64,000 bases of DNA from Planctomycetota bacterium (lineage in GTDB: Bacteria > Planctomycetota > B15-G4 > JADJEK01). Shown here one piece after another: positions 22,507 through 52,167 of the stretch. A model generated the notes under the pieces. That model had not been told where the DNA came from. It was given only the letters and a program-made list of their open reading frames with translations, and did no database searches. The DNA lies in the NCBI GenBank assembly GCA_044225365.1, contig JBGAIQ010000009.1:96462-160461 (forward strand), written 5' to 3'. A program made the position numbers and the translations under genes. Position 1 is the stretch's first letter, and every line of letters begins with the position of its first letter.

Positions 22507-22582
22507 GCTGCGGAAAACGCGACGAGTGGCGCGGGCGAACCGTCGCGGGATAGAATGCGCGGTCGTTCCCAGGAGCCGAGAC

Positions 22583-23606: not shown

Positions 23607-24457
23607 CGGGCGTGGAAGACGAACTCGATTCCGGGGCCGCGGCGGATCTCGACGCGAAGGAAGCGCGACTGCGTAGAGCGGTGCGGGAGCTCGAAGGCGG
23701 CGTCGTCGTCGCGTTCTCTGGCGGCGTCGATTCGGCGCTCCTGCTCCTCGTCTGCGCGGACGAGCTGAAGGGCCGGGTGCTCGCGGTCACCGCCGAGTCG
23801 CCGTCGTTCCCGCAGCAGGATCGCCGCGACGCCGCACTCGTCGCGAAGCAGCTCGAGGTCGCTCACGTCAGCGTCTCGACGCACGAGATGAACGATCCGC
23901 AGTACGTCCAGAACGACGCCTCGCGCTGCTACTTCTGCAAGCACTCGTTGTTCGAGACCCTAGAGCCGATCGCGCGCTCCTCCGGCCTTCGCCATCTCGC
24001 GTTCGGCGCCAACCTCGACGACGAAGGCGATTATCGACCGGGCCATCGCGCCGCGGCGGAGTTCGCCGTCAAGGCGCCGCTGCTCGATGCGGGATTGCGA
24101 AAGGCCGACGTCCGCGCGCTCGCGAAGAAGCTCGGACTCTCGATCTGGAACAAGCCCGGCTCGGCGTGCCTCGCCTCGCGGATCCCCTACGGAACGGCGA
24201 TCGATCCCGCCGTCCTGGCGCGCGTCGACGCCGCGGAGAATGCGCTGCGGGAGCTCGGATTCCCGCAACTGCGCGTGCGGCATCATGGCGACGTCGCGCG
24301 TCTCGAGCTCGATCCAAGCGACATCGCGCGTGCGGCGGAATCGCGCGAGGCGATCCACGCGGTGTTGCGCGCACAGGGCTGGCGCTATGCGACGCTCGAT
24401 CTGCTCGGCTATCGCACGGGCAGTCTCAACGAAGCGCTGCCGCGACGCGAGACCTGA
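23603..24457 (+). CDS. PP-loop superfamily ATPase, LarE/TIGR00268-like sulfur transferase (CxxC + C type)
   Basis: 284 aa. GTG start overlaps the thiG stop (GTGA). PP-loop [14 protein letters not shown]. Cysteines RCYFCKH (CxxC) and [12 protein letters not shown]. The ORF-track entry 22937..24457 is trimmed. Confidence 0.8.
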
Positions 24458-24463
24458 ACGATC

Positions 24464-24479
24464 GGCGACCCGCGTCGCC
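24464..24479. terminator. GC-rich hairpin in the 24-nt gap between convergent genes (possible bidirectional terminator, no U-tract)
   Basis: ggcgac-ccgc-gtcgcc perfect 6-bp stem. Confidence 0.3.
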
Positions 24480-24481
24480 CA

Positions 24482-25765
24482 TCAGCCGCGGGTGCGGCGC
24501 AGGACGTCCGCGAGCGAGCGTGCCGAACGATAGCCGACGAGCTTCTCGACGATGCTTCCGTCCTTGTCGATGAAGACCATCGTCGGCACGATGGCCGCGT
24601 TGTGCCGCGCGGCGAGCGCGCGTTCGAGCGCCGGATTCAGTCGCACGCAGACGAAACGAGACCGCAAGAGCTCCGACACTTCGGCGTCCTGCAGAGTTCG
24701 CTGATCGAGATCACGCGCGATCTTCGACCAATCGGCGGTATAGAGCACGCAGAGCGTCTTCTTGTCCCTCTTCGCGAGCTCCTCGCCCTTGCCGATGTCG
24801 GTGAGCCATTCCACCGGCTTGTCGGTGCGGGGGCGCGGTGGCTCGAGCTGGAGCGGGTCGGAGTCGAGCAAGGCCTGCTGCGCGGAATCGACGCTCTCCT
24901 CGCCGACGTCGACCCGCCGCGCCTCCGGCATGAGACTCGTGATTCGATACGGAATGCCGCCGAACTGGATCGGAACGGTGCATGGAACGAGTTCGAGGCC
25001 CTGCGGGAGTGGCGCGCCTGGCGCGAGTTCGATCAGTGCCCAGCGTGCCGAGCCGACGGCGTACATCGCCGTACCGCTGTCGTCATAGAGCACGACCCGC
25101 GCGTCCTTGCCGAGCAGCTTCGCGGTTCCTTCGCGCCAGTTCGCATCGATCACGAAGAGCTTCGTCATCTCCGACGGATCGTTGGAGCGCGGGAGCCAGG
25201 AATAGAACGTGAATCGGCACGCGTCCTCGATCCGGTCCGAACCGCCGGACGTCTCAACCCTCGCGCCGAAGTAGACGGTGACGGGGACCGCGGTGAATTC
25301 GACGTAGTCGGTCTCGCGCTGCGGATCCTTCACGACGACACCCTTCACGGGCTCTTGTTCATCGCTCCCGGAGAAGGATTGATCGCGATCGCGATCGATC
25401 CACAGCAGGTCGTAGCGATGCGTCGAGGGATTCGATTGGTCGAGGATGATCGTCTGGCGCCCACCGCGGCCGAAGCGCACGATTCCGTAGAGCGGCGTGT
25501 CGCACCGGAGCTGCGGGAGTTGCTTGATCTCGAGCATCGGTTTCTGAGCGAGCGCGATGGCGGTCGGCGAGCGCGAGACGAACGGACGCTCAGCCGGGTT
25601 CCCGGCCACGAGTTCGAGGGGGAACGACGTCTTCTTGACGAGGTTTCCGGCCGTGATGCCAACCTGGTTCGGATCGTCCTGCTGCGGGTCGGGTTGTTGG
25701 GCGAACGCGCGGCTGAAGCACAGCGCGCCGAAGGCCACGGCGAAGGCGAACGGGAAACGAAGCAT
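24482..25765 (-). CDS. Secreted protein with C-terminal thioredoxin-fold domain lacking the CxxC active site
   Basis: ~427 aa from MLRFPFAFAVAFGALCFSRAFAQQ (signal). The C-terminus (KKTLCVLYTADWSKIARDL...IVPTMVFIDKDGSIVEKLVGY) is Trx-like, but the usual W-C-x-x-C reads W-S-K-I-A. Confidence 0.6.
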   Translation of the reverse strand: MLRFPFAFAVAFGALCFSRAFAQQPDPQQDDPNQVGITAGNLVKKTSFPLELVAGNPAERPFVSRSPTAIALAQKPMLEIKQLPQLRCDTPLYGIVRFGRGGRQTIILDQSNPSTHRYDLLWIDRDRDQSFSGSDEQEPVKGVVVKDPQRETDYVEFTAVPVTVYFGARVETSGGSDRIEDACRFTFYSWLPRSNDPSEMTKLFVIDANWREGTAKLLGKDARVVLYDDSGTAMYAVGSARWALIELAPGAPLPQGLELVPCTVPIQFGGIPYRITSLMPEARRVDVGEESVDSAQQALLDSDPLQLEPPRPRTDKPVEWLTDIGKGEELAKRDKKTLCVLYTADWSKIARDLDQRTLQDAEVSELLRSRFVCVRLNPALERALAARHNAAIVPTMVFIDKDGSIVEKLVGYRSARSLADVLRRTRG

Positions 25766-25829
25766 TCTCGAACTCTCTCTTCGAAGGAAGATCAGATTCT
25801 TCGGCGATCGACGGGCTCGCGCAAGAGCC

Positions 25830-27032
25830 CTACTTCTGGAAGATCGGCAAGTACTGCTGCGGCATGAGGAGGATGAGGCACGCGGACGCCGTGGAATAGA
25901 CTCGACCGTAGTCGCTCTCACCGATCGAGCCCTTCGGATCCTGGCTCTCCGCGAACTCGTCGACGATCGCCGTCTGCCACGCGCGGAACAGACTGGGATC
26001 ACGGTACAGGTAGTAGGCCTCTGCCGCATAGAGCCGCGCGTAGAAGGGATGAGTATCGCCGAGAGTGCGCAGGCTGGGATTCAGAACCGGATCCTTGATC
26101 TGCATGTACTCGATGCCGCGGTCGATCACGTCGCTGGCATAGTCGCCCGTGGCGTTGAGGGTCGCGATGGCGGCAGCCGTGAGTCCGTAACTCACCTGCT
26201 CCTTCATCATCTTGCTGTAGCAGAAGGCCCCGCTCGGCCGCTGGAGCTCCCTCACGTACTTCACGGCGTCGTCGATGCATTGCTTGTTGACGTAGATTCC
26301 GACGTCGCGTGCCGCTCGCAGGGCCTGGATCATCGTGATGGTGACCGACCCCTCGTGCTCGGCGTCTCCGGGCTCGTAATACCAGCCGCCATCCTTCGTC
26401 TGCGACCATTCGATGAGCTGGACGGCGTCGACGAGGATCCGGCGCAGCTCGGCCATCTCGCCGCGCACGCGCTTCACCGAGCCGTCCCCGTAGGCATCGT
26501 CGATGCGGTAGGTGCCATAGGCCTCGGCGAGGGCGAGGGTCGCGTACCCGTGGCCGTGCATCTTCGACGTCCCGTCACCGGGGAACGAGAAGTAGATGTG
26601 GTTGACGTCGATGTCCTCGGCCTTGTCCTCACCCAGAATCCGATGCGCGGTGAACGTCGTGGCGTTGCCGCACTTCATGAGGAACTGGATCGCCTTCTGC
26701 ACGTTCTCGCGATACGGCCCGCGGCCGAGCGTCGAGCCACCCGCCATGAACGCGAGCGCACTGAGGGCGGTCACGGCGACGGGAGCCGACGTCACTCCGG
26801 TATCGGACTTCGCCTTGTTGAACTGACCATCCTCGGCCTGTTGCTTCGCGAGCCACTCGAGCCCGCGCTGGCCGATCTCGAACGCGCGATCCTCGACCTC
26901 GCGCGTGGCGTGCTGGGAATTCCCGTCCGATCCGAAACCGGCGCCGCTCGGGCGGCACATCGCCTTCGCCGCGACGAGGATTGCCGCGACAGCGAGGACA
27001 GTGCTTACCGGGATGGCGCGGGCCGGGATCAT
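25830..27032 (-). CDS. Secreted QW-motif prenyltransferase/squalene-cyclase-fold repeat protein (paralog 1)
   Basis: 400 aa. Signal MIPARAIPVSTVLAVAAILVAAKA. Repeats such as LEWLAKQQAEDGQF and LIEWSQTKDGGWYYEP (QxxDGGW). C-terminal ...QQYLPIFQK. Homologous along its length to 32941..34149. Confidence 0.7.
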   Translation of the reverse strand: MIPARAIPVSTVLAVAAILVAAKAMCRPSGAGFGSDGNSQHATREVEDRAFEIGQRGLEWLAKQQAEDGQFNKAKSDTGVTSAPVAVTALSALAFMAGGSTLGRGPYRENVQKAIQFLMKCGNATTFTAHRILGEDKAEDIDVNHIYFSFPGDGTSKMHGHGYATLALAEAYGTYRIDDAYGDGSVKRVRGEMAELRRILVDAVQLIEWSQTKDGGWYYEPGDAEHEGSVTITMIQALRAARDVGIYVNKQCIDDAVKYVRELQRPSGAFCYSKMMKEQVSYGLTAAAIATLNATGDYASDVIDRGIEYMQIKDPVLNPSLRTLGDTHPFYARLYAAEAYYLYRDPSLFRAWQTAIVDEFAESQDPKGSIGESDYGRVYSTASACLILLMPQQYLPIFQK

Positions 27033-27742
27033 CAGGGCTGCTTGCTCTTGTTCCGCGTCCGGTAGTACTGCAACAGGAGCTCTCGATAGCGGTCCGGGAA
27101 CTCGTTCTGCGAGAGCTTCTGGAACATCTCCTGGACCTTCGGCGGCAGGACGCCCCAGCGGCCGGCGACGTTCTCGCGCTGGTACTTCTCCTTCTCCGAC
27201 GGCGGATCGACGCCATCCGCCTTCTGCTGATCCGGCTTGCTCTTGTCCGGCCCACCATCCTTCGGCTGGCCCGATTTCTCCTCGGGCTTCTGCTTGCCCT
27301 CGCCCTTGTCCTTCTCGCCTTGCTGCTTCAGCTTGTCGACCTCGGGATCCTTGCCCCGCTCGTCCTGCTGTTTCTGCTGGGGAGAGTTCTTGGGATCGGG
27401 CTCGCCCGACCCCTTGCCGCCGCTGTTGGACTGCCGCTTCGCCATGCGGACGAGTTCCTCGATGTCCGTCACGGCCTGCGACTGCTTGGATTGGATGTCC
27501 TTCAGCAGCTTGTCGAGATCGGCTTTCACCTGCTCGATCCTCGCGGCGGCATCCTTGGGCGCATCCTTCGCAGCCTGCAACAGCAGCTCGTCGATCTCGC
27601 CCATCTCCTTACGGATCTTGGCTTGGAGCTCCTTCGCCTTGATCTCGTCGGCTTGTCCCCCGTCCTGCGCGACCGCGCGCTGCGCGCTCACGCCCGTGAG
27701 GATCGCCGCGACGCAGAGGAATCGCTGGATGCGCGTGTTCAT
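27032..27742 (-). CDS. Secreted low-complexity K/E/Q/D-rich protein
   Basis: 236 aa. Signal MNTRIQRFLCVAAILTGVSAQRAVAQ. Extremely charged body (KGSGEPDPKNSPQQKQQDERGKDPEVDKLKQQGEKDKGEGKQKPEEKSGQPKDGG...). Start overlaps the upstream stop; its own stop overlaps the downstream start. Confidence 0.55.
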   Translation of the reverse strand: MNTRIQRFLCVAAILTGVSAQRAVAQDGGQADEIKAKELQAKIRKEMGEIDELLLQAAKDAPKDAAARIEQVKADLDKLLKDIQSKQSQAVTDIEELVRMAKRQSNSGGKGSGEPDPKNSPQQKQQDERGKDPEVDKLKQQGEKDKGEGKQKPEEKSGQPKDGGPDKSKPDQQKADGVDPPSEKEKYQRENVAGRWGVLPPKVQEMFQKLSQNEFPDRYRELLLQYYRTRNKSKQP

Positions 27743-30525
27743 TTGCCACCCGGGCCCTTCTCGTCCTTCACTTCGACCGGCGGCCCCTGCGAGTCGTCGA
27801 TCATGCCGCGGAAGAGTTTCGTGATCTCGGAGTGCTGTAGTCCGAGGCGGGTCAGGCGGTCACGCGAAATCGCGTCGAGACCACCCTCCGCATTGGCGCC
27901 CTGGAGCCGCATGAAGACGTCGAGACGCTTCATCATGCTCTCCTCCATTCGCTTCAACATGAGCAACTCGGCGACGGGCGGGATCAAGGGCTGCTTCTGT
28001 TGCTGCTGCGGCGAATTCCCGTTCTGGCCGTCCGGCGGCTGGCCCTCCTCGCCCTCCTTCGGCTTGAGCTTCGCCTGCTTGCGGCGCTCGACTTCTTCAT
28101 CGAGGGTCGCGAGAAGCGTGTCGTAGCGATCGAGGATGTCGCGCGCGATCGACTGCGTGAAGTCGTCGGTGCGGTAGGGAGCGGTCCCGAGCAGTTCGGT
28201 CACTCGATCGAAATCGCCGTCGTTCTGCTCGAGCGCGAACGTGAAGACCGTCGCTCCATCCTCGCGCAGCTTCGACACGACCTCCTGATTCTGCACCTTC
28301 AGTTCTCGCGACTTCTGCGCGAGCTTCTTCGACGTATTCTGTCCGACTCGCGACAGCTTGCCCTTGCTCTGGCGCTCGAGTTCGAGCTCCTCGGTCTTGG
28401 CTACGACCTCACCCTGGCCCGTACGAAGGAGGGTCAACTGCTCCTTCACCTTGAAGAGCAACTCCTCCTGGCGAAGGTTCTGGTACTTGTCCTTCTCCTG
28501 CTTCAGTTCCTGCTCGGCCTTCTTCAAGAACTTCTCGGCTTCTTCCTGGCGCGGGGTTGCTTCCTCGCCCTGCTCCTTCTTGAGGCTCGATGCCGCCTGA
28601 TCCATCTTCGATGCGGCGGCGGAGAGCGACTGCTCGCGTTCGGGCTTCTTCTCGTCGCGGATACGATCCATCAGCTCTTTCAGCTTCTTCTCGAGCTCCC
28701 GCTGACGGCTCTCGAGGTCGTCGTACTTCTGCTGCTGATCCGCGGCCGAAGGGGAGTCCTTCGCGGACTGCTCGGCTTCCGACTGCTGCTGGTCGAGCTC
28801 CTGCGAGGCCTTCTCGAGTTGTTCACCCGCCTCGCTCTGGCTCTTCGCTGCTTTCTCCTGCTGGCCGCTGCGCATCGATTGCGCCGCCTGCTGCATCGAC
28901 TGCGCCGCCGACTCCACGGCCTTCGAGGCTCCCGACGGCGAATCCTTCTTCATGGCCGCGTCGAGGCGGGAGAGCGTCTTCGCGAGAGCCTCGGCCTGCT
29001 GGCTCGCGTACTCCTGCTTCGCGGCGAGGGAGTCGCTCCGTTCCTGCGCAGCCTTCTCGGCACCGTCGATCGCGTTGCGCGCCTCCTTCATCTTCTCGAG
29101 CGCATCGCGTTGCGCCGCGGCCGCGCCTTCGAGGTCGGGCTTCTCCATCTCGGAACCGGCTTCGTTCGCCGCTTGCGCGCTCTGCTCGAGCGCCGCCGCC
29201 GCGTCGCTCGCTCGCTTCTGCGCCGCTTGGTTTCGTTCGGCGGCCTGCGGATCGCCCGCACTCTTCGAATCGCGTGAGTCCTGCGTCGGCAACTTCTCCA
29301 CCCGGGAAGCAGCTTCTGCGAGCTTCTTCGCTTCGTCACCGAGTTCGCGTTGCTGGTCGGCCGCCTTCGCGTCGGTCGCCGACTTCGAGAGCGCCTTGTC
29401 GAGCTGCGCCTTCGCGGCATCGACGTTCTCGTTCTCGGCGTTCGCGAGCTGCGCCGCCGTGGACGCGTCGCCGTTCTTCTCGGCGTCGCGCGCCGCCTTC
29501 ATCCGCTCCGAAGCACTCGCGAGTGCTTTGGCGAGGGCTTCGCGGGCGGTTGCGATCTCGGCGGCGTTCGCCGGATCCTTCGCGCCGTTCTCGCCGTTCT
29601 TTGCGTCGGCCGCGGTCGCCTCCTGTGACAACGCGTCCTTCGCCGCCGCGAGTTGTTCGGCAACCTTCTTCATCGCGTCGGCGTCGCCCGCGGCCTTCGA
29701 GTCGTCAGATGCGTCGGCCTTGGACTTCGGGGAGCCGTCGGCGGAGGCTGCCTCGGCCTTCTTGGCAAGGTCCTTCGCGAGAGCCTTCTGGGCTTCGATC
29801 GCGGCCTGTGCAGCGAGGAATCCGGGAGCCGCCCGCTCGAGCGAGTTCTCGGTCGCTGCGAGCGCGGCATTCTGCTTCGCGATCAGGTTCTCCAACTGGT
29901 GCTTCAGAGCGGCGAGTGCCGAGTCCTTCGACTGCGACTCGCTCGTGTTCTCCTTCGCCAGCTTCTGTTCGTTCTCCTTCAGGTCCTTCAACTGACTCTT
30001 CGCCTGCTCGGCGAGAGCCTTCGGATTCGTCGCCAGAACGGTCGTCTCGTTCGTCAGCTTCTGCTGCTCGCTCCGCACCTGCGCAATGTCGCGGACCGCT
30101 TGTTCGAGCTTCTTGGCTTCGGCGTCGAGCGAATCGAAGTCCGTTCGATCGAGGAGGATCGCGTACACGGACTCGAGATCCTTGAGCAGGTCCTCCTGCT
30201 CCTTCACCGAGGCGAACTCCTGGCGGTCGAGACTCGACCCGATCTTCTCGATCGTTCGGGTCAGCTCGCGCTTCTTGATCTCGGCGATCGCATTGTCGAG
30301 CAGGTCGGCGCTGTGCTGCTTTCCCTCCGCCCGCAGCCGCTTCGACAGCGACTCCATGTTCTTCTTCGTCGACTCGATGCGGCTCTTGAGGTTCTGCTGC
30401 TCCTGCGAGATGCGTTTGACGTCGGTCGCGGCGTCGGTCTCATCGCTCGCCCACGAGCGTGCGAACGGCAGTGCACAGAGCGACAGCGAGAGGAGACACG
30501 GAGCGAAGTGGAATCGGCTTCTCAT
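27739..30525 (-). CDS. Secreted giant coiled-coil protein (A/K/E/Q/S-rich, ~928 aa)
   Basis: From MRSRFHFAPCLLSLSLCALPFARSWASDE (signal). Almost entirely heptad-like charged helical sequence. The ORF-track start at 30669 is trimmed to this internal ATG. Confidence 0.6.
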   Translation of the reverse strand: MRSRFHFAPCLLSLSLCALPFARSWASDETDAATDVKRISQEQQNLKSRIESTKKNMESLSKRLRAEGKQHSADLLDNAIAEIKKRELTRTIEKIGSSLDRQEFASVKEQEDLLKDLESVYAILLDRTDFDSLDAEAKKLEQAVRDIAQVRSEQQKLTNETTVLATNPKALAEQAKSQLKDLKENEQKLAKENTSESQSKDSALAALKHQLENLIAKQNAALAATENSLERAAPGFLAAQAAIEAQKALAKDLAKKAEAASADGSPKSKADASDDSKAAGDADAMKKVAEQLAAAKDALSQEATAADAKNGENGAKDPANAAEIATAREALAKALASASERMKAARDAEKNGDASTAAQLANAENENVDAAKAQLDKALSKSATDAKAADQQRELGDEAKKLAEAASRVEKLPTQDSRDSKSAGDPQAAERNQAAQKRASDAAAALEQSAQAANEAGSEMEKPDLEGAAAAQRDALEKMKEARNAIDGAEKAAQERSDSLAAKQEYASQQAEALAKTLSRLDAAMKKDSPSGASKAVESAAQSMQQAAQSMRSGQQEKAAKSQSEAGEQLEKASQELDQQQSEAEQSAKDSPSAADQQQKYDDLESRQRELEKKLKELMDRIRDEKKPEREQSLSAAASKMDQAASSLKKEQGEEATPRQEEAEKFLKKAEQELKQEKDKYQNLRQEELLFKVKEQLTLLRTGQGEVVAKTEELELERQSKGKLSRVGQNTSKKLAQKSRELKVQNQEVVSKLREDGATVFTFALEQNDGDFDRVTELLGTAPYRTDDFTQSIARDILDRYDTLLATLDEEVERRKQAKLKPKEGEEGQPPDGQNGNSPQQQQKQPLIPPVAELLMLKRMEESMMKRLDVFMRLQGANAEGGLDAISRDRLTRLGLQHSEITKLFRGMIDDSQGPPVEVKDEKGPGGK

Positions 30526-30569
30526 GGTGTGCCTTACGACCGATTGCGCGCGGCGGGGTTCCATCGTTG

Positions 30570-32906
30570 TCATTCTCTCTTCAGCGACTGCTTGGTGCGC
30601 TGATTGAGCGACCGTTGATCCTCGACCAGATTGCGAAACGTCGCAACGATCTCTTGAAAACTCTCCCACTCATCGAGGCGGGCGATCAAGGCGTCGAGCC
30701 GTTCGAGCGCCCGTTTCTCCTCCTCGAGGGCTTGCCGCAAGGCCAAGGGCCGCTGCGCAGGATCGACGGCGAGCCGTGCATCGGACAGCGCTTTCGCGGC
30801 CGCCGGCGAATGCAGCTCGGCGACGTCGATCACGCAATGGATCATCTCGAAGATGCGACCGAGGATCTCGAGTCGACCGTACGCACTCGCGGCGTTCGCT
30901 TCGACGAGCGGTCGCCACAGCTTCGGATCGAACCCGTCCAATTGGGAGCTGCCGCGCTTCTTCTCGAGCATCACCGCGATCAATCCTTCGACGCCCGAAC
31001 TCGTGTCGAGCCGATTGAAGAGGTACTCCTCGAAGATCTCCGCGAACTCTCGGCACTGCTTCAGCGACCGTGCGGTCACCTGGTTCTGGCCCACCTCGAG
31101 CGTGGCGACGTCATCGGCCGTCGCGCCGGTCACCCCTTCGGCCTGGTCGAACTCCTTCAGGATCACTTCGAGTCGCTCGATCTTCTCCTGCTGGAGAGCG
31201 CGCAAGGAGCCGACCTCCTCCTTGGTGCGAGTCTGACGCTCCGCCAGGAGTCGCTGTTTCTCGCCGGGCGCGACGATGTCGACGCGCCGCTCCTCGATCG
31301 CCGTCTCGTTGCCGCCGGTCGAGGGCTTGCCGTCCTTGCCAAGGACGATGCCGTCGAAATTGTCCTTGGCCGCGACGCGATAGACGAGCGACTCCCCCGC
31401 CGCCATCGCGCGCGGCCCGCCTTCGTGCTCGAACACCTTCTGCTTGAGGTCGAGGTGCTCGTAGACGAGGACGCGACGCGATTCGTCCGGACCCTTGCCG
31501 ATCGGGAAGTCGATCTTCAGCGGGGTCGCACCGCCAAACGGCTTCATCTCGATCGCGAGGCTCGTGAGTCCGTAATCGTCGTCGGCGGCGATCCGCAACG
31601 GAACGATGCCGTTCGGTGTCACGTCGACGTCGGCGCGGCCGGGCTCGAGGACTCGCACGGTCGGACCGCGATCCTTGACGGCGAGGACCGAGTAGGTCGG
31701 GGGTTCGAGATTCTTGAACCCGATGTCCGAGACCAGCTCGATGGAATAGGCGCACGACTGCGTGATGTCGAACGACGCTCGCAGCTTCCGCGAATTCGAA
31801 TCGGCGACGAGTAGAAGCGGCAGTGCCGCGATCCCGCTGTCGAAGACGAGGCGACCGGCGGCCACCGCATCGGCGGTCTGGACGTCGATCGTGACGTGTG
31901 TCCCGACGAGTCCTTCCACGTCGCCTCGTGGTTCGACCCGCGGTCCGAGACCGGTGTAGGCCGGGAACTGGAGCTGCGACGTGACGCTCGCGACCGCGGG
32001 CGGCGTGAAGATCTCGACTTCGACTTCGCGGCCGCCGCCATCATCGTCGCCGCCGACCGGTCGGAACGTGAAGGGCGCGCGCACCGATCGGAACCGGCCC
32101 GCCCACTCACCATTGCCCGTCGACGACAGGGCGATCTTCGAATCCCCGCTCTCGCGCGACTCGGTCCGGACCTCGACGAGCTCGGGGTTCTCGCCGTTCG
32201 CCGTCACTGCGACCGGCAGACTCGCGCCACGAGCGATGCGGACGCGAATCGGGCGCTTCTCGTTCGAGGAGTCCTTCGCGTCGTATTCCACGACGTAGTG
32301 CGTGCCGTGCTCGGGGAACTTCACCGCGAGCATCGTGCGTTGCGGCCATCGTGCGCTCCCGCCGAGTAGGCGGCGGAAGAAGACGTCGGCGAGCGACGAC
32401 TGCGTCGCCACGAACGTGATGACGCCGAGGACGAGCACGGCCGCCGCCGCGCCGAGGCGCTGCAGGTGCCGATACTCGAAGATCGTCGAAAGGGGCAGGG
32501 TGGCCCGGATCGCCGAAGTCTCGCGCCGCAAGTCGGCGACGAGCTCGGGCGACACGTTGCGCTGCGGATCGATCGCCTCGCCCTCGAGTTCGAGGACCGC
32601 GAGCAGACGGCCGTCGAACTGCGGGAAGCGCCGCTCGATCGCACACGCGACATCGCGCTCGGTCGGCCGCTTCTTCAGGGGGTAGACGATGCCGCGATAT
32701 ACCTGCACGGCGAGGCCGGCGACGACGACGAGCAGCAGCACGATGCGAACCGGCGCGGGCAGGGCGAGCGACCGATCGAGGACGTAGAGGGCGGCGAGCC
32801 CGCAGCATACGAAGGCGACGACGCGCGCGATTCCATACAGCAGCGCGAGCTTGAGCCAGCGGCCCGCGAGACGCGAGAATTCGGCGCGCAGTTCGTTCAG
32901 GTCCAT
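30570..32906 (-). CDS. Membrane protein (two N-terminal TM helices + ~650-aa extracytoplasmic region), possibly DUF4175-like distal component of MoxR/vWA operons
   Basis: 778 aa. MDLNELRAEFSRLAGRWLKLALLYGIARVVAFVCCGLAALYVLDRSLALPAPVRIVLLLVVVAGLAVQVY (2 TM). beta-rich middle, coiled-coil C-terminus. Family assignment not verifiable here. Confidence 0.55.
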   Translation of the reverse strand: MDLNELRAEFSRLAGRWLKLALLYGIARVVAFVCCGLAALYVLDRSLALPAPVRIVLLLVVVAGLAVQVYRGIVYPLKKRPTERDVACAIERRFPQFDGRLLAVLELEGEAIDPQRNVSPELVADLRRETSAIRATLPLSTIFEYRHLQRLGAAAAVLVLGVITFVATQSSLADVFFRRLLGGSARWPQRTMLAVKFPEHGTHYVVEYDAKDSSNEKRPIRVRIARGASLPVAVTANGENPELVEVRTESRESGDSKIALSSTGNGEWAGRFRSVRAPFTFRPVGGDDDGGGREVEVEIFTPPAVASVTSQLQFPAYTGLGPRVEPRGDVEGLVGTHVTIDVQTADAVAAGRLVFDSGIAALPLLLVADSNSRKLRASFDITQSCAYSIELVSDIGFKNLEPPTYSVLAVKDRGPTVRVLEPGRADVDVTPNGIVPLRIAADDDYGLTSLAIEMKPFGGATPLKIDFPIGKGPDESRRVLVYEHLDLKQKVFEHEGGPRAMAAGESLVYRVAAKDNFDGIVLGKDGKPSTGGNETAIEERRVDIVAPGEKQRLLAERQTRTKEEVGSLRALQQEKIERLEVILKEFDQAEGVTGATADDVATLEVGQNQVTARSLKQCREFAEIFEEYLFNRLDTSSGVEGLIAVMLEKKRGSSQLDGFDPKLWRPLVEANAASAYGRLEILGRIFEMIHCVIDVAELHSPAAAKALSDARLAVDPAQRPLALRQALEEEKRALERLDALIARLDEWESFQEIVATFRNLVEDQRSLNQRTKQSLKRE

Positions 32907-32940
32907 CGGTTGATCGGGTCCGTCTCGTGGTCCATCGGGC

Positions 32941-38780: not shown

Positions 38781-38951
38781 GTCGATTACCCCGCTAACGC
38801 GGAGACGATCGGGCGCAGCCTCCCCTCGGAACCGGCAAGGTTGCGAGGCGTCGCGGCAATCGTCTCCGTAAGTCCAATCAATGTATCGTCTTCTTTGCCC
38901 GGATGATCCAGTGTTCGGAGTTCGTGAGCGGCCGGGTCCGAGTCGTCGCCG

Positions 38952-40896: not shown

Positions 40897-43333
40897 GTAG
40901 GATCCACTCGGCGGAGAGAAGGGCGAGGAACAGGAGCAACGTGCTCCAAGACGACCACAGTTCGCGGCGCCGTGGCTCGCCGGTCAAGCGCTCGCGCACG
41001 TCGCCTTCGATCGTCGCGAGTGCGTCCTTGATCTCGTGGACCCCAAAGTAGCGTCCGCGAGTCGCCGCTGCGACCTGTTCGAGTGCATCTCGCGCAAGTA
41101 CCGGATTCTCCCACTCGCGCTTCGGCACTTCGACGGTGAACGACTTCGGCGACAGATGTCCCGCGTCGCGACCGGCGGCATCCTCGAGCCATGCCTGGTA
41201 CGAACCCGGGAGCGCAAGTCGGATCGTACCCTGGAAACGACCCTCGGCGGGATCGACGTTCGTGAGTTCGAGTTGCGTGACCACACCTCGCGGATCGGCC
41301 AGGTGCGCGACGTACTTCGCGTCCGTGAGCGGACCGAAGTCGACGTTGCGGATGCGCGCGTTCAATCGGATCGGCTCATGGATGTCGTAGACCGACTTGT
41401 CGGTCGTGAGCTCGAAGCGCTTGTTGGTGCGGCGCAACTTGTTGAGCGCCACATAGCGAACGACGGCTCGCCAGAACCGTTCCGGATACCGGTTCCCGTA
41501 GTACTTGCGCCACAGCCACGTCGAGTCGAACCCGACGAACATCGTGCGCCCCGCCGGATAGAACGACGAAGCGAGCAGGACGTGCTTGCCGAAGGAGTTG
41601 CCGTTCTCCGGATGCCGGAGCATGACCTCGGCGCCGCCCTTCGCCTTGCGCGCCGCGAAGTACCACTCCTGCGGGGGAAGGCCGACAGCCGGGTCCTCCC
41701 ACAACTTGCGGTTCATCGCGAGATCCTTCTCGAGCCGCACCGGCTCCGGCGGATCGAGCGGGTTCTCGAGCATCGGGCGAAACGGCTTCTTCGCCGAATC
41801 GAGGCGCGCCCGCTGGTCCTCGGCGTCGTTACCGACGACGACCGGAAGGAGATCCTCGAGCGGCGTTCCGATGTAGGAGACGGGATCGTCGAGTTCGCCC
41901 GCGAGGAAAACCAAGCCGCCGCCGAGTTCGACGAACTGGCGGAGGTTCTTCAAGGCGTCGTCCGCCGCCTGCGTCGACGTCGGCACGATGAGGTACGGGT
42001 TCACGTCGCCCAGGATCACCACGTCGTACGTGAGCAGCGCTTCCTTGGTCGGGGGGAACGCCGTGAGCGCGGGGACGTTGTCGGACGACTCCTGGATGAA
42101 GTCCTTGTCCGCGTCGAGCAACAGGCACTGCACCTTGAAGTTCTTCGAGCGCAGCAGGATGTTCATCAGGAAACGGTATTCCCAGCGAGCGTAGCCCTCG
42201 ACGTAGAGGACCTTCACCTGCTCGGGATCGACGCGGAGATGGTGGTTGCGGACGTTGTCGTCCTGGAACTGCTCGCCCTGGAGCGGCGCCACCTGGATCT
42301 CGAGATCGAACTCCCCTTCGCGTTCCGGGCGCCAGTAGAGGGTCTCGAGTTGCTCGCGCCCGCTCTGCTGCGCGAGCGTGATCTCCTTGCTCGACAGGAC
42401 TTCGCCGCTCTCGCGCGACTTCAGCACGAGGCTCGTCGTGCGGCCTTCGTAGCCCTTGCTCGAGATCGTGACGTCGAACGCGACGTCGTCGTTCACGAGC
42501 GCGACGTCGGGTGCGCGCACGGCCTGGATCGCGATGTTGCGCGGTTCGTTCGGGTCGCCCACGCCGATGCAGTGGACTCGCACGCCGTCGAGCGACGCCT
42601 GACTCGCGGCTTGCGCGAGATCGAGCCCAGCGTTCGATCGTCCGTCGGAGATGACGATCATCTCTTGCACGCGATCGCCACGATTCTCGATGTCGGTCAA
42701 CGCATCGGCGATCGCCGACCCGAGCCGCGTGGAGTTGGACGATGCCGACCAATCGTCGAGCGAATCGAGGCTGCGCAATTCGTCGCCGAACGCCATGAGC
42801 CGCACGTCGTTCTTGACCTTCAAGGCGTCGAGCAGCGTGGACTGATTCTTCAGGATCGCCTTCACCAGATCGACACGCGGCGTCGTCGCGAGCGCGTCCT
42901 TCGAAGGCAGCTTGGCGAGGTCGGTGAGGGCGTCCGCGGCGTCCTTGTCGTTGTACGAGTCGGCCCGTGTCATCGATGCGCTCGCGTCGAACAGGATCGG
43001 CAAGACCGATTTCTCGATCTCGACCTGCTGCGTCTCGAGCACCGGACGGAATAGAACGACGAACAGAACCGCGAACGCGAGCGCGCGCAGACCGGCGAGC
43101 AGACCGCGCTGGCGCGCAGTCAGTGGCGCGCGTTCCTTTCGGTAGGCGTACACCGAGGCCGCGATCACTCCCGGGACGATCAACAGCGCGATGATCCAGC
43201 CGGCGGGCGCCTCGAGGAACTTGAAGGTCGTGATGTCGTGCGAAACGTTCGGCAACACGGAGTTCGGTGCGTTGGAAGACGTACCCTGCGGAATCGCAGC
43301 GAGCCAGAGTGCGACCAGGCGATCCTGAATCAC
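40874..43333 (-). CDS. BatB-like membrane protein: N-terminal double-TM + vWA domain + long C-terminal region
   Basis: ~819 aa from a GTG overlapping the upstream stop (GTGA). TM FKFLEAPAGWIIALLIVPGVIAASVYAY / LAGLRALAFAVLFVVLF. vWA MIDAS motif ILFDASASM. C-terminal TM near the end. Confidence 0.7.
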   Translation of the reverse strand: MIQDRLVALWLAAIPQGTSSNAPNSVLPNVSHDITTFKFLEAPAGWIIALLIVPGVIAASVYAYRKERAPLTARQRGLLAGLRALAFAVLFVVLFRPVLETQQVEIEKSVLPILFDASASMTRADSYNDKDAADALTDLAKLPSKDALATTPRVDLVKAILKNQSTLLDALKVKNDVRLMAFGDELRSLDSLDDWSASSNSTRLGSAIADALTDIENRGDRVQEMIVISDGRSNAGLDLAQAASQASLDGVRVHCIGVGDPNEPRNIAIQAVRAPDVALVNDDVAFDVTISSKGYEGRTTSLVLKSRESGEVLSSKEITLAQQSGREQLETLYWRPEREGEFDLEIQVAPLQGEQFQDDNVRNHHLRVDPEQVKVLYVEGYARWEYRFLMNILLRSKNFKVQCLLLDADKDFIQESSDNVPALTAFPPTKEALLTYDVVILGDVNPYLIVPTSTQAADDALKNLRQFVELGGGLVFLAGELDDPVSYIGTPLEDLLPVVVGNDAEDQRARLDSAKKPFRPMLENPLDPPEPVRLEKDLAMNRKLWEDPAVGLPPQEWYFAARKAKGGAEVMLRHPENGNSFGKHVLLASSFYPAGRTMFVGFDSTWLWRKYYGNRYPERFWRAVVRYVALNKLRRTNKRFELTTDKSVYDIHEPIRLNARIRNVDFGPLTDAKYVAHLADPRGVVTQLELTNVDPAEGRFQGTIRLALPGSYQAWLEDAAGRDAGHLSPKSFTVEVPKREWENPVLARDALEQVAAATRGRYFGVHEIKDALATIEGDVRERLTGEPRRRELWSSWSTLLLFLALLSAEWILRKRFNLI

Positions 43334-45648
43334 GGGCGGCCTCCGAGCGAGCGACGACCGAACCAGGCGGCGAGCGCCATCTCCGCGGCGAGCAGAGCGA
43401 TGATCACGTAGAGCATCGGCTTCCACAGCTCACCCTCGTGCGACGCGACCGATTCCTGCTTCTTCACTTCGATGCGATCGAGGATCGTCAGCGGGACGTT
43501 CGGGTAGATCGAAGCGAGAGACTTCGCATCGATGCGTTCGGGGTCGCTCTCGACGGGATCGAGATTCACGGCGTACGGAATGGTCTTCTTCTCGCCCGCG
43601 CTCGATGCAGCCGCGAGCGGGAACTCGAGGTCGAGGGAGTAGATGCCGGGCTCGTACGTCCGACTGAAGACGGGCAGGACGAATCGGCCGTGTTCCTTCT
43701 CGTCGAAGTTGGCCTCGAGCGCCACGCGCTCGTTGTTCGGTAGGACGATCGCGATCGACGAGGGGATCGCGCGCTCGGTGCGGCGCAAGCGATCGGAGAT
43801 GCCGATGTTGAATTGATCGAGGTCCGGCATCGTGAGGAACGCCGCGATCTCGTGGATCAGCGAAAGGTATCCCATCACGTTGTCGCCGTCGGCGAAGGAC
43901 GCCCAGCTCGAATCGATGCTCGTGCCGAAGAGGACGACGCGACCGTGCCCCGCGGGCTTCTCGAGGATGAGCGGGCTCGGCGATGCCGCGTCATCGTCGA
44001 GCGAGAGGACCGTGGCCGTCGCCGCATCCTTGTTCCCGACCACCACGCGAACGTAGCGCATCACGGGGATGCGGAGCTCCGAAGTGAGTCGCGGATCGCG
44101 GAACAGTTCGAGCAAAGGGTGCGAGAGGTCCTCGACTCGCGGGAGCACCGCGCGCGACTTGTCGGCAGCGGCGTCCCCTCGGAATTCGACGAGGCGGGCG
44201 GGCAATAGACCGGTCCCGTCCTCCCGATACAGGCGTTCGTTCCAGGCCCGCAGATCGAGATCGTCGCCGGCGAAGATCAGGAGGCCGGCACCATTGCGCA
44301 CCGTATCCTCGAGTTCGCGCGCGATCTTCTCGTCGATCCTTCCGACGTCCGCGAGCACGATCATGTCGTAGTCGGAGAGCGTCTCGGCCCCGAGATTGAA
44401 TCGCCGATCGTCCATCGTCTTCACGAGGTACGGCGAGAGGCTCGGCTGGTCGTCGACGCCCGGATTCAGCATCGCGGCGAACTCGGAGGTCGATCGCAGG
44501 TCGTCGCCCTTGTCGTACTGGCCGTCGACGACGAGGACGTTCACGCGATCGCGAACCGGGAACGCGAGGAAGCGGCGGTCGTCCCCGGGAATCTCGTCCT
44601 CAGCGATCTCGAACTCGACGCTCGCGAACCCCTCGTCCTTCATGCTCGCCGCGAACTCGACGCTCGCCGTTCCGTGCGCGGGGACGTCGAACGCCACGGT
44701 CCGCGCCTGCTCGCGCCGTCCATTCAGGACGAACGACCCTCGCACGCCGTGCTCCGCCGTCGCGCCCTGGTTCTTCACCGTCGCGGTGAACGAGACGACG
44801 TTGTCCTTCACCACGTTCTTCGGCGAGGAAACGAGATCCTCCACCGTCAAGTTGTGGGACGGCTCGGAGTCGCCGACGTCGACGATGACGAACGAGGCAT
44901 CTCGCGACGTCGCGCGACGAAGCGCTGCGGCGGGCAGCGCTTCGTTTCGACCCTCGTGCGTCGGCGGTGACGCCGGTTCCTTGCCCTTGCCGAGGTCAGC
45001 GGTGCTCGGATCGTCGGGATCGAAAGTCAGTCGCTGGAGATCGCTGAAGAGGAAGACCTCGTGATGCGAAGTCGCGGGAGCGAGCACGAGTTCGTCGACC
45101 AGTTCGACTCCGCGAACGAGATCGCAACCGCGCCACTCCGGCTTCAACCGCGAGATCGCGTCGCGCACGAGATCGAGGCGGGTGGACTCCTGGACGAGGA
45201 TCTGCGGAGCCGCGGAGAGCGAGACGAGGGTGACGCGATCGCCACGCTCGGCGGACAATTGATCGATGAGCTGCCGCGCCTGCTCCTTCGCGCGATCGAG
45301 CGCGCTGTCGCCGCCCCGGGTCGTCCGCGTCATCGAGTACGAAGTGTCGATCATCACGACGAGATTGCGCTGCGAATTCGTGAGCATCGACAGCGGATTC
45401 GACAGCGGCACGAACGGCCGCGCGAGCGCGAGCGCGAGCAGCACGATCAACGCGCAGCGCACGAGCAGGAGCAGGAGTGACTCGAGCGTGAGGCGACGAC
45501 GCGTCTTGCGATAGGCCTCGAGCAGGAACTCCTGCGCCGCCCACTTCACGGGCGTGAATCGCCGCCGATTCAGCAGATGGATGATCAGCGGCACCGCGAA
45601 GAGGAGCGCTCCGGCGGCGAGCGCTGGGCTCGCGAAGGAGAAGTTCAT
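43330..45648 (-). CDS. BatA-like protein: aerotolerance-regulator N-terminal double-TM domain + vWA domain
   Basis: 772 aa. MNFSFASPALAAGALLFAVPLIIHLLNRRRF...LLLLLVRCALIVLLALALARP (BatA_N signature). vWA LVVMIDTSYSMTR. C-terminal TM. Confidence 0.8.
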   Translation of the reverse strand: MNFSFASPALAAGALLFAVPLIIHLLNRRRFTPVKWAAQEFLLEAYRKTRRRLTLESLLLLLVRCALIVLLALALARPFVPLSNPLSMLTNSQRNLVVMIDTSYSMTRTTRGGDSALDRAKEQARQLIDQLSAERGDRVTLVSLSAAPQILVQESTRLDLVRDAISRLKPEWRGCDLVRGVELVDELVLAPATSHHEVFLFSDLQRLTFDPDDPSTADLGKGKEPASPPTHEGRNEALPAAALRRATSRDASFVIVDVGDSEPSHNLTVEDLVSSPKNVVKDNVVSFTATVKNQGATAEHGVRGSFVLNGRREQARTVAFDVPAHGTASVEFAASMKDEGFASVEFEIAEDEIPGDDRRFLAFPVRDRVNVLVVDGQYDKGDDLRSTSEFAAMLNPGVDDQPSLSPYLVKTMDDRRFNLGAETLSDYDMIVLADVGRIDEKIARELEDTVRNGAGLLIFAGDDLDLRAWNERLYREDGTGLLPARLVEFRGDAAADKSRAVLPRVEDLSHPLLELFRDPRLTSELRIPVMRYVRVVVGNKDAATATVLSLDDDAASPSPLILEKPAGHGRVVLFGTSIDSSWASFADGDNVMGYLSLIHEIAAFLTMPDLDQFNIGISDRLRRTERAIPSSIAIVLPNNERVALEANFDEKEHGRFVLPVFSRTYEPGIYSLDLEFPLAAASSAGEKKTIPYAVNLDPVESDPERIDAKSLASIYPNVPLTILDRIEVKKQESVASHEGELWKPMLYVIIALLAAEMALAAWFGRRSLGGRP

Positions 45649-46562
45649 CGCCGCGAACCTCGCCGTTCGCGCAGCGCGAGGTACGAAGTGAGTGCGACGT
45701 CGAGCGGCGTGTCGGTGAGGAGCACGCGGAAGTCGACTCCGTTGTTGAGACAGCCCTTCTTCAACTTGGCCTGATGCGCGTTGAAGACCTCAAGGTACGC
45801 GGCGCGCAGGGCCTGAGGATCGGCGATCAGGTCGCCCATCCCCTCGAGGCCCTCGAACTTCATCATGCGGTCGAACGCGAAGTCGACTTCGTCACGATCG
45901 AGCACCTGGAAGACCATGACGTCTTGCCGCTTGGTCTTGAGGGCGCGGATCCCCGCGAGCACTTTCTCGGGCGGCGCGAAGAAGTCCGAGATGACGGCGA
46001 CGATCGATCGCGGCGGGAGTCGCGTAGCGAGTTCACGCAGTGCGAGCCCAGGGTCGGTCTTCTTCACGAGCTTCACGCGCTCGATCGCGTCCGTGATCTT
46101 GAGCAGGTGCGAGGGCCGCGTCGCCGCGGGAACCCATTTGTCGACGTCCTCGCTCGTGAGCGCGAGCGCGGCGGCATCGCGGTGATCGAGGACGAGGAAC
46201 GACAAGGTCGCCGCGACGAATGCGCCGTAACGGAACTTGCTGACCCGATCGACGCCCGCGTAGCTCATGGACTCCGAGCAGTCGAGGACGATCGACAGCG
46301 TGAGGTTCGTCTCTTCCTCGTAGCGCTTGATGTAGTAGCGATCGGATCGTCCGAAGATCCGCCAGTCGAGATGGCGCAGGTCGTCGCCGGGCACGTATTC
46401 GCGATGCTCCGCGAACTCGACGGAGGCCCCGCGATGCGGGCTCTTGTGCATCCCGGCCATGAATCCTTCGACGGCCTGGCGCGCCTTCAGTTCGAGGCGC
46501 CCCAGCTTGTCGAGGACCTTAGGATCCAACCACTGGCGGTAGTCGTGTGTCGCTGAGGACAT
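45645..46562 (-). CDS. DUF58 (vWA-like) protein, MoxR partner
   Basis: 305 aa. LDPKVLDKLGRLELKARQAVEGFMAGMHKSPHRGASVEFAEHREYVPGDDLRHLDWR is the canonical DUF58 N-terminus. Confidence 0.85.
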   Translation of the reverse strand: MSSATHDYRQWLDPKVLDKLGRLELKARQAVEGFMAGMHKSPHRGASVEFAEHREYVPGDDLRHLDWRIFGRSDRYYIKRYEEETNLTLSIVLDCSESMSYAGVDRVSKFRYGAFVAATLSFLVLDHRDAAALALTSEDVDKWVPAATRPSHLLKITDAIERVKLVKKTDPGLALRELATRLPPRSIVAVISDFFAPPEKVLAGIRALKTKRQDVMVFQVLDRDEVDFAFDRMMKFEGLEGMGDLIADPQALRAAYLEVFNAHQAKLKKGCLNNGVDFRVLLTDTPLDVALTSYLALRERRGSRR

Positions 46563-47562
46563 CGGATTCAGCGCGCGGAACGCTTTCGAGGATGCGCTTC
46601 ACGAGGTCGTCGGACGTGATGCCCTCCGCCTCAGCGCTGAAATTGGGAAGGATGCGATGGCGCAGCACGGGCTGCGCGACGGACCGAACATCGTCGCCGA
46701 GGACGTTCGCATGTCCCTTGAGGAGGGCGCGCGCCTTGGCAGCGAGGACGAGGAATTGCGATGCGCGCGGACCAGCGCCCCATGCCACCGACTCCCGGAT
46801 GAAGCCGGGCGAATCGGGTTGGGTCGGGCGCGAGACGCGCGCGAGGCTCATGGCGTAGCGGATCATCGAGTCGTGGATCGGGACCCGTCGCACGAGTTGC
46901 TGCAGCTTCAGGATCTCCTCGGCGGAGAGAACGGGGAGCGGCTCGGCGGATTCGCGCGCCGTCGTCCGACGAACGATCTCGAGTTCCTCGACATCGCTCG
47001 GATAGTCGATCCGGATGTTGAACATGAAGCGATCGAGCTGCGCTTCGGGCAGGGGATAGGTGCCTTCCTGTTCGATGGGGTTCTGCGTCGCGAGGACGAA
47101 GAACGGCTGACCGAGCGAGTGCTTCTTGCCCGCCACGGTGACCTGGTACTCCTGCATCGCCTCGAGCAACGCCGCCTGGGTCTTCGGGGGCGTACGGTTG
47201 ATCTCGTCGGCGAGGATCACGTTGGCGAACAGAGGCCCGGGGATGAATCGCATCTCGCGCTCGCCTGTGCTCTTGTTCTCCTGGATGACCTCCGTGCCCG
47301 TGATGTCCGACGGCATGAGGTCCGGCGTGAACTGAACGCGGTTGAAGGAGAGAGACAGGGTCCGCGCGAGGGTCGAGATGAGCAACGTCTTCGCGAGACC
47401 GGGGACTCCCGTCAGGATGCAGTGGCCGCGCGCGAAGAGCGCGATCAGGAGCTGATCGACGACTTCGTCCTGCCCGACGATGACCTTCTGGATCTCGGTC
47501 TTCAGGCTCGTGTACGCCGCGCGGATCTGCTCCACCGCGGCGAGGTCTTGCGACTCGGTCAT
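46519..47562 (-). CDS. MoxR-family AAA+ ATPase
   Basis: ~347 aa from MTESQDLAAVEQIRAAYTSLKTEIQKVIVGQDEVVDQLLIALFARGHCILTGVPGLAKT (Walker A). ILADEINRTPPKTQAALLEAMQE (Walker B / sensor). The ORF-track start at 47622 is trimmed. Confidence 0.9.
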   Translation of the reverse strand: MTESQDLAAVEQIRAAYTSLKTEIQKVIVGQDEVVDQLLIALFARGHCILTGVPGLAKTLLISTLARTLSLSFNRVQFTPDLMPSDITGTEVIQENKSTGEREMRFIPGPLFANVILADEINRTPPKTQAALLEAMQEYQVTVAGKKHSLGQPFFVLATQNPIEQEGTYPLPEAQLDRFMFNIRIDYPSDVEELEIVRRTTARESAEPLPVLSAEEILKLQQLVRRVPIHDSMIRYAMSLARVSRPTQPDSPGFIRESVAWGAGPRASQFLVLAAKARALLKGHANVLGDDVRSVAQPVLRHRILPNFSAEAEGITSDDLVKRILESVPRAESDVLSDTRLPPVVGS

Positions 47563-50109: not shown

Positions 50110-50194
50110 CAAGCGGGACACGAAAGACCCTCCACCGTTGCCGCGCGGATTCTCGCGGTCACGGGGAGACAAGTCAAAGCGAACACCAACTTCT

Positions 50195-52166
<1,972 letters not shown>

Positions 52167-52167
<1 letters not shown>

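Follow-up and report, generated by a model that had tools for sequence, protein, structure and literature searches.

Gene content of the cluster

The window analysed here is a 64,000-nt stretch of a Planctomycetota genome (assembly GCA_044225365.1, contig JBGAIQ010000009.1, positions 96,462 to 160,461; G+C content 63–70%), in which 13 genes lie head-to-tail on the minus strand from position 49945 down to 24482, between eno upstream and nusA downstream. Open reading frame (ORF) listing and domain scans place in this cluster a MoxR-type AAA+ ATPase, a DUF58 protein and two double-transmembrane (TM) proteins with von Willebrand factor A (vWA) domains, which form a Bat/MoxR-type core, followed by a ClC channel and a block of extracytoplasmic proteins. 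An earlier note on this DNA had described 12 of these genes; their strand, coordinates and listed domain content all held, the Pfam and NCBIfam labels agree with nearly every label it had given, and its reading of 46519–47562 onward as a Bat/MoxR-type core running into a conserved extracytoplasmic block is supported by both domains and synteny. The start it gave for the cluster came one gene too late: the unit reaches upstream to a 755-residue protein encoded at 47678–49945 (U755).

The cytoplasmic pair consists of MoxR (46519–47562, minus strand; AAA_3, 3e-63, 212 bits; AAA_lid_2, 1.4e-18), with intact Walker A (GVPGLAKT) and Walker B (VILADE) motifs and another possible ATG at 47622, and, directly downstream, DUF58 (45645–46562, minus strand; DUF58, 5.4e-39; VWA_2, 6e-6), a vWA-like fold with a DCSES motif of the DxSxS type at residue 94. 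Neither protein has a TM segment (hydropathy scan). The BatA-like membrane protein (43330–45648, minus strand; BatA, PF07584, 4e-15; TIGR02226, 7e-19; VWA_2, 1.6e-12) is ordered as an N-terminal double-TM hairpin, a vWA domain with a metal-ion-dependent adhesion site (MIDAS), a weakly matched CARDB-like beta-sandwich, a DUF7408/GATase1-like region and a C-terminal TM helix, with hydropathy segments at residues 8–26, 58–76 and 741–759; its MIDAS DxSxS motif is kept across 12 orthologs. The second double-TM vWA protein (VWA2; 40874–43333, minus strand; VWA, 7e-8; GATase1_like, 4e-7) starts with a GTG at 43333 inside the end of the BatA-like gene and comprises a double TM, a vWA domain with MIDAS, a GATase1_like/DUF7408 region, a weak MG2-like beta-sandwich match and a C-terminal hydrophobic tail; its DASAS/DDSAS motif is kept across 14 orthologs. 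In both proteins an Arg-rich loop joins the two helices of the N-terminal hairpin, and by the positive-inside rule the vWA, beta-sandwich and GATase1-like parts are predicted to be periplasmic. This topology agrees with that determined experimentally for Borrelia BB0173, a BatA-type inner-membrane protein whose vWA domain is periplasmic (PMC5700661). Neither protein has a propeller family match in Pfam; their C-terminal regions match CARDB, DUF7408, GATase1_like and MG2 instead.

Downstream, three consecutive genes read, on profile and positional evidence, as one DUF4175-family protein split in three: the 778-residue N-terminal part (D75N; 30570–32906, minus strand), a coiled-coil protein of approximately 930 residues that forms the C-terminal part (27739–30525, minus strand) and a K/E/Q-rich secreted protein of 236 residues (KEQ; 27032–27742, minus strand). 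D75N covers DUF4175 profile positions 192–325 at 26.2 bits, just below the cutoff of 27.3, and six of 20 members of its family match DUF4175 (best 4.8e-12). Conversely, the D75N family profile recovers a 1183-residue 'DUF4175 family protein' from Candidatus Brocadiia (9e-96) and a 'DUF4175 domain-containing protein' from Candidatus Schekmanbacteria (3e-93), names taken from NCBI or UniRef, and in BLASTP D75N aligns with the N-terminal halves of long homologs (1099–1234 residues). The C-terminal part, an A/E/K/Q-rich helical protein of about 900 residues after its signal peptide (other possible starts at 30573 and 30669), covers profile positions 646–795 at 31.4 bits (cutoff 27.3); its hidden Markov model (HMM) gives weak matches to two long DUF4175-like proteins, P0033 and P0036, in their C-terminal halves, and its gene comes after that of D75N in all related loci. 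KEQ (K 13.6%, Q 11.4%, E 8.9%, D 8.5%) carries a conserved C-terminal motif, RWGxLPP...FPxRYRxLLxxYY, which in the window reads FPDRYRELLLQYYR and resembles the extreme C-termini VPARYQRLVDQYYRAL, VPQAYRDLVSEYFKSL and PAGYEEMTGAYFRSL of the long DUF4175-like proteins P0033, P0036 and P0040. An HMM of this tail reaches, after the orthologs, P0033 (residues 1090–1115 of 1121, E = 0.005) and P0036 (residues 1212–1234 of 1234, E = 0.8), so that the proposed link of KEQ to the DUF4175 C-terminus is statistically weak and exact in position.

The AlphaFold2 model of D75N (pLDDT 87) consists of a TM hairpin (residues 3–78), a helical segment (83–136), a third TM helix (146–168), approximately four Ig/MG-like beta-sandwich domains (190–545) and a helical bundle (547–776), and its PDB neighbours are generic tandem Ig/MG arrays. 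Hydropathy scan and model together give three TM helices for a protein previously described as double-TM. The helical segment at 83–136, with many invariant positions, should be cytoplasmic and lies in a conserved domain of about 80 residues (~71–150). An exhaustive search with the D75N profile returned 17,377 cluster representatives, 3,972 of them with E ≤ 1e-30; word-indexed searches had given 31 matches for D75N and nine for the 1544-residue protein described below, an apparent rarity that is a sensitivity artefact.

This 1544-residue giant (34146–38780, minus strand; PQQ_2, 4.5e-18, and tetratricopeptide repeats, TPR) is predicted to be a periplasmic scaffold-type protein. As read from profile matches alone, with its family profile compared against PDB sequences, it is ordered as an anchor or signal, TPR (residues 73–220), a propeller of the pyrroloquinoline quinone (PQQ)-like type (435–672), helical/TPR repeats (749–1074) and a BamB-like propeller (1130–1386). 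It scores 24.6 against TIGR03075 (PQQ dehydrogenase; cutoff 480) and 29.8 against TIGR03300 (BamB; cutoff 285), values that place its resemblance to PQQ-dehydrogenase and BamB propellers at the level of the fold only. U755 (47678–49945, minus strand), with an N-terminal hydrophobic anchor or signal, TPR and a PQQ-like propeller (weak PQQ_2 match), corresponds, as a shorter paralog, to the N-terminal half of the giant (BLASTP, residues 99–229 against 94–227 and 440–643 against 458–657). Its true start probably lies downstream of 49945, because a small ORF at 49828–50172 (minus strand), between enolase and U755, overlaps the annotated start. This ORF, of approximately 97–114 residues, combines a single TM helix with a coiled-coil-like segment after it and gives no Pfam match; we take its place and shape to be typical of FtsB/DivIC downstream of eno.

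Two further proteins are predicted (alpha/alpha)6 toroids. QW1 (32941–34149, minus strand; SQHop_cyclase_C, 9e-11) is a secreted or anchored single-domain protein with three QW motifs, and QW2 (25830–27032, minus strand; SQHop_cyclase_C, 4e-8) shares 31% identity with it (BLASTP, 1.8e-42). An ESDMSITVCQ motif is invariant in QW1 and HEGS[IV]T is conserved in QW2. The AlphaFold2 model of QW1 (pLDDT 86) is a single toroid of about 330 residues; its best Foldseek matches are squalene-hopene cyclase (SHC; 1sqc, top), the single-domain myxobacterial SHC-like structures 8paj and 8pak, AprG and MstE, with target-normalised TM-scores of 0.62–0.65 for single-domain matches and 0.34 for the two-domain 1sqc. 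QW1 has 4764 homologs at E ≤ 1e-5. The DxDD motif was not found in the folded region, where ESDMS is the equivalent conserved motif of QW1, and the score against the hopene cyclase model TIGR01507 is 28 bits (cutoff 431). Source annotations of the cluster genes read 'hypothetical', 'terpene cyclase/mutase family' or 'DUF4175 family'; by these comparisons the genes labelled as terpene cyclases in such clusters are unlikely to encode cyclases, which corrects the annotation of QW genes in this context. We also considered the QW proteins as thioester (TED) domains that, with the MG2- and CARDB-like domains, would make up a split alpha-2-macroglobulin. We rejected this reading because a CxEQ motif is lacking and most structural neighbours are toroids of cyclases, epimerases and hydrolases; complement chains come no higher than ranks 47 and 50.

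Many of the junctions overlap, by 44 nt between MoxR and DUF58, 4 nt between DUF58 and the BatA-like gene, 4 nt between the latter and VWA2, 34 nt between VWA2 and the ClC gene, 4 nt between the giant and QW1, 4 nt between the coiled-coil gene and KEQ and 1 nt between KEQ and QW2. These stop/start overlaps suggest translational coupling, and that of MoxR and DUF58 is identical in a related locus (L002). Gaps of 171, 34, approximately 44 and 64 nt separate other cluster genes. The first of these is the spacer between ClC and the giant (38781–38951, 171 nt), which had been described as an AT-richer gap of about 170 nt possibly holding an internal promoter. Its length stands, its composition differs only marginally (GC 0.626 against 0.65–0.68 in the flanks), and the promoter is not borne out: promoter-like (sigma-70-like) and terminator-like sites do not rise above shuffled expectation in the spacer, nor do the counts across 24000–43900. 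Rfam and tRNA scans of the whole window, spacer included, gave no match, and PADLOC returned none for the eight cluster proteins submitted.

Gene order in relatives

A genome scan with the family of the 778-residue protein, onto which the window proteins were mapped by tblastn, yielded 28 loci, nearly all from Planctomycetota metagenome-assembled genomes and several from Phycisphaeraceae or Phycisphaerales; two carry no label beyond 'bacterium', and one had been binned as Pseudohongiellaceae. The order BatA-VWA2-giant-QW1-778-coiled-coil-KEQ-QW2 is kept down to approximately 29% identity of the 778-residue protein. A giant is present in 20 of the genome loci; in 15 of these it is preceded by VWA2, and two of the other five are cut by the locus end. 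Two relatives with a giant about 50% identical retain the full order DUF58-BatA-VWA2-ClC-giant-QW1-~770-~950-~230-QW2-Trx, where Trx denotes a thioredoxin-fold gene. Locus L005 reads giant-QW1-769-(fragmented coiled-coil)-QW2-Trx, preceded by a remnant of VWA2, and in L006 VWA2 is followed by a C25 peptidase and then by the giant block. The same cluster surrounds two QW1 homologs found on long contigs, and in related loci QW2 closes the block on its 3' side.

The reverse test was anchored on VWA2. Of at least 440 relatives it covered 79 metagenomic loci, in which family HMMs were run against six-frame ORFs. MoxR-DUF58-BatA is present in 40 of the 42 loci with enough upstream flank. Where at least 3 kb of downstream sequence was available, the giant follows VWA2 directly in 33 of 48 loci and after an insert in three more (36/48); among the rest, D75N comes next in four and QW1 in one, the block is inverted in one, and nothing recognisable follows in six. 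QW1 and D75N both occur in 26 of 30 loci with at least 8.5 kb downstream, and of the 31 loci that reach at least 7.5 kb upstream, 20 have a U755/giant-like gene right before MoxR. Gene order is thus kept across more than 100 related loci. The cluster is real and conserved across many Planctomycetota, and it consists of phylum-specific periplasmic proteins added to a widespread system, not of a new kind of system. The independent placement in relatives that would have spoken against a single unit, as the earlier note had allowed, was not the pattern found. The cluster is preceded by enolase in 22 loci and followed, on the same strand, by nusA in seven; this stable placement points to vertical, housekeeping-like inheritance and not to a mobile defence island.

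Two members of the cluster in the window have a narrow distribution. The ClC channel or antiporter with a C-terminal CBS pair (38952–40907, minus strand; Voltage_CLC, 2.5e-87; CBS, 1.7e-19) recurs in only five non-self loci (L002, L003, L011, L012 and L014), and in none of the 79 VWA2-anchored loci. The secreted thioredoxin-fold protein (24482–25765, minus strand; Thioredoxin_2/Thioredoxin_7, ~1e-6) has an N-terminal region of about 300 residues before its C-terminal thioredoxin fold, and its gene is found in only eight loci, all from close relatives. It carries WSKI where WCxxC is expected, and none of the eight orthologs has a CxxC, the position reading W-S/N/A-x-x-x, which confirms the replaced CxxC noted earlier. 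Both genes had been listed as cluster members; they are present with the domains claimed, and their restriction to close relatives of the window marks them as accessory, clade-specific insertions outside the core. Elsewhere one or two gingipain-like Peptidase_C25 genes with propeptide domains are found in the place between VWA2 and the giant (L006, 1367–3496; L039, 783–5084; also L050 and L099), which suggests a swappable accessory position.

Relation to known systems and interpretation

To our knowledge, few bacterial gene clusters of unexplained mechanism are as widespread as MoxR-DUF58-BatA operons, whose reported phenotypes range from aerotolerance through envelope defects to none. In other phyla DUF4175 is a regular, usually the last, gene of these operons. 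In a Gemmatimonadota locus (L036) and two metagenomic loci (L037 and L007), a long DUF4175-like homolog sits directly after MoxR-DUF58-BatA, DUF4159 lies upstream of MoxR, TPR/Peptidase_MA_2 genes are nearby in L036 and L037, and a GATase1_like gene is nearby in L036 and L007. The window shares with these operons the core order of MoxR, DUF58 and a double-TM BatA_N/vWA protein, a GATase1_like membrane protein close by, and a DUF4175 that has N-terminal TMs and whose long helical tail of low complexity terminates in P-x-x-Y-x-x-L-x-x-x-Y-[YF]. It differs in that the single DUF4175 polypeptide of approximately 800–1200 residues, with N-terminal TMs and a low-complexity tail, is absent here and its regions are spread over three consecutive genes; in that the giant and a toroid stand between the vWA genes and DUF4175, with a second toroid after DUF4175 and a paralog of the giant before MoxR; and in that scans of the 13 cluster proteins revealed neither DUF4159 nor a Peptidase_MA_2/TPR gene. 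A 317-residue gene of L036 and a 348-residue gene of L007, considered as QW-like proteins of these simpler clusters, showed no similarity. The earlier note had read the window as an expanded Bat operon. The giant and QW genes are indeed additions; about half of the supposed expansion, namely the 778-residue, ~930-residue and KEQ genes, is none, because DUF4175 already belongs to MoxR-DUF58-BatA operons of other phyla. The split genes mark domain boundaries inside DUF4175. The RL3499-RL3502 operon of Rhizobium leguminosarum, which we take to be of the same MoxR-DUF58-BatA-DUF4175 type, reportedly affects cell morphology and envelope integrity (Vanderlinde 2011). Apart from these comparisons, the MoxR of L007 (912–19441), with DUF4159 upstream, has an N-terminal FHA-like (Yop-YscD_cpl) domain, and a few genes downstream lies a Prok-E2_B/ThiF and Prok-JAB pair of the ubiquitin-like conjugation type.

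With the BatI operon of Bacteroides fragilis and its spirochaete, Francisella and Riemerella homologs, the cluster has in common MoxR, DUF58 and BatA/BatB-type MIDAS vWA proteins, in that order, and a TPR component. Its composition nevertheless departs from the batA-E set, as had been claimed: no BatD or SH3 (BatE) family match occurs in the 13 proteins (Pfam/NCBIfam), TPR are found only inside the propeller proteins U755 and the giant, the vWA proteins have 770–820 residues with beta-sandwich and GATase1-like modules as opposed to about 330 residues in BatI, and DUF4175 and the QW proteins fall outside batA-E. A comparison in domain order alone can be drawn with the membrane-coat-like proteins of the Planctomycetes-Verrucomicrobia-Chlamydiae group, which exceed 1000 residues, consist of a beta-propeller followed by alpha-helical repeats and include one located in the paryphoplasm, or periplasm (Santarella-Mellwig 2010, PMC2799638); residues ~330–1120 of the giant have the same order, to which it adds an N-terminal TPR region and a second, C-terminal BamB-like propeller. 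Our literature search found no paper on this planctomycetal architecture.

The region is probably a Planctomycetota (Phycisphaerae-type) version of the MoxR(MRP)-DUF58-BatA/vWA-DUF4175 envelope system, vertically inherited and, as we infer, engaged in remodelling a periplasmic scaffold. It encodes the cytoplasmic MoxR and DUF58, three inner-membrane proteins (BatA-like, VWA2 and D75N) whose bulk is predicted to be periplasmic, and six signal-bearing soluble or anchored partners (the DUF4175 C-terminal part, KEQ, QW1, QW2, U755 and the giant); all non-core proteins have N-terminal hydrophobic or signal-like segments. Working from the cytoplasmic side, MoxR and DUF58 would use ATP to act upon the Arg-rich loops of both vWA proteins and upon D75N through its cytoplasmic domain. 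The MIDAS sites would hold acidic segments of partner proteins, the complex would owe its organisation to the TPR/propeller giants, and the toroids would bind or modify a glycan or lipid ligand of the envelope. The outcome would be the assembly or remodelling of an inner-membrane-anchored periplasmic multiprotein scaffold, and it is in this sense that the 'assembly line' for a periplasmic or outer-surface complex proposed earlier may be understood. The physiological role may lie in envelope integrity and stress tolerance, as borrowed by analogy from homologous operons in other bacteria, among which those of Riemerella and Francisella are associated with stress sensitivity (PMC11834572). The planctomycetal version keeps the core and presents many more candidate partners as separate genes, a testable parts list, in a cluster that is common in its phylum and not exotic.

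Several observations weigh against this interpretation. Deletion of bat in Leptospira biflexa had no phenotype (PMC3557215), so an envelope or stress role is not universal. In a single related locus, L001 (1–9763), type II secretion-like genes and not a Bat core precede the giant-to-QW2 block, in L102 the block is inverted, and in about six distant loci nothing recognisable follows VWA2. Order alone is no proof of co-function, because the whole region from eno to nusA is syntenic in the lineage, and part of the conserved order could reflect an inherited neighbourhood and not selection for co-function. The placements in L001 and L102, the enolase and nusA flanks in many relatives, the variable presence of ClC and the thioredoxin-fold gene and the 171-nt gap before the giant would all suit a region of juxtaposed independent units (a Bat-type MoxR operon, ClC, the block from the giant to QW2, and the thioredoxin-fold gene) held together only by the stable eno-nusA neighbourhood. 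We consider this unlikely, since DUF4175-type genes adjoin MoxR-DUF58-BatA in unrelated phyla where the neighbouring genes are otherwise different, gene order persists through repeated changes in what separates VWA2 from the giant (ClC, a C25 peptidase or two, or no gene at all), and several junctions overlap by 1–4 nt. Because of the cross-phylum adjacency, the DUF4175 pieces at least belong with the core, and these pieces lie beyond the giant and QW1.

A periplasmic enzyme pathway, in which the giant would be a PQQ-type dehydrogenase matured by MoxR and the QW proteins terpenoid cyclases or glycan-modifying enzymes, has a precedent in the original MoxR, which matures methanol dehydrogenase, and could draw on the PQQ_2 matches of the giant, on the nearness of the QW1 fold to squalene-hopene cyclases and other (alpha/alpha)6 enzymes, and on the invariant acidic motifs (ESD in QW1, HE in QW2). 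We hold it to be decidedly improbable: the giant falls far below the dehydrogenase cutoff and resembles non-catalytic BamB propellers, the QW proteins are single-domain, lack DxDD, score far under the hopene-cyclase cutoff and carry export signals, unlike cytoplasm-facing cyclases, and the cluster is without cofactor, redox or substrate-supply genes. Another candidate is the MoxR-vWA-beta-propeller ternary biological-conflict system, with U755 and the giant as third component and the downstream genes as accessory effectors. Such systems, as described by Kaur, Burroughs, Iyer and Aravind (eLife 2020; PMC7159879), occur in Planctomycetes without conventional effectors, and in their third component a membrane segment is combined with TPR and a beta-propeller. 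U755 and the giant resemble that component, the window likewise has a MoxR and vWA core and no conventional effector domain, and the ATPase matches the Pfam bpMoxR model (2e-11, 43.8 bits). Against this, the AAA_3 score is 212 bits, the P-loop is GVPGLAKT and not the GXXXTAKS often found in bpMoxR, and the defining fusion of vWA and propeller is absent; DUF58 and BatA_N are classical MRP/Bat hallmarks, PADLOC was negative, and, unlike variable defence islands, the locus is single-copy, is inherited vertically in a constant eno–nusA setting in the manner of housekeeping genes and shows no trace of diversification. A conflict system is accordingly the least plausible of the readings considered and very improbable. 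The envelope-system interpretation could also be taken further, to a phylum-specific, MoxR-powered periplasmic super-complex in which membrane-coat-like giants, paired toroids and a fibre of split DUF4175 would contribute a structural element to the unusual envelope of planctomycetes, for instance one that shapes or spans an enlarged periplasm. This extension is quite unlikely; if true, it would be the first mechanistic handle on Bat/MoxR-DUF58-DUF4175 systems in any bacterium.

Neighbouring genes

Upstream of the cluster, also on the minus strand, lie enolase (50195–51781), a DJ-1/PfpI gene (52167–52754), a 667-residue HEAT-repeat gene (52768–54771) and a Cu/Zn superoxide dismutase gene (55016–55684), which places two oxidative-stress-type genes near a Bat/aerotolerance-type operon. 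Further upstream are a beta-CASP/RMMBL gene for an RNase of the metallo-beta-lactamase fold (55776–57161) and a beta-propeller gene of the glucose/sorbosone dehydrogenase type (GSDH; 57244–58809), both of which appear unrelated to the cluster. In L001 the genes that precede the giant block on the same strand encode GGDEF, STAS, T2SSE/MshEN, T2SSF and pseudopilin-like proteins and a GAF histidine kinase.

At the other end of the cluster, between nusA and a PP-loop ATPase gene, the stretch 20140–22698 holds overlapping long ORFs of 769 residues (plus strand) and 852 residues (minus strand), neither with a significant Pfam match. The PP-loop gene itself (22937–24457, plus strand) is convergent with the thioredoxin-fold gene, ends 24 nt from the end of the cluster and gives NAD_synthase/Asn_synthase/ATP_bind_3-type matches, with a LarE-like C-terminal half. 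The same convergent PP-loop gene, followed by ThiG and ThiS, is found in the close relatives L001 and L005.

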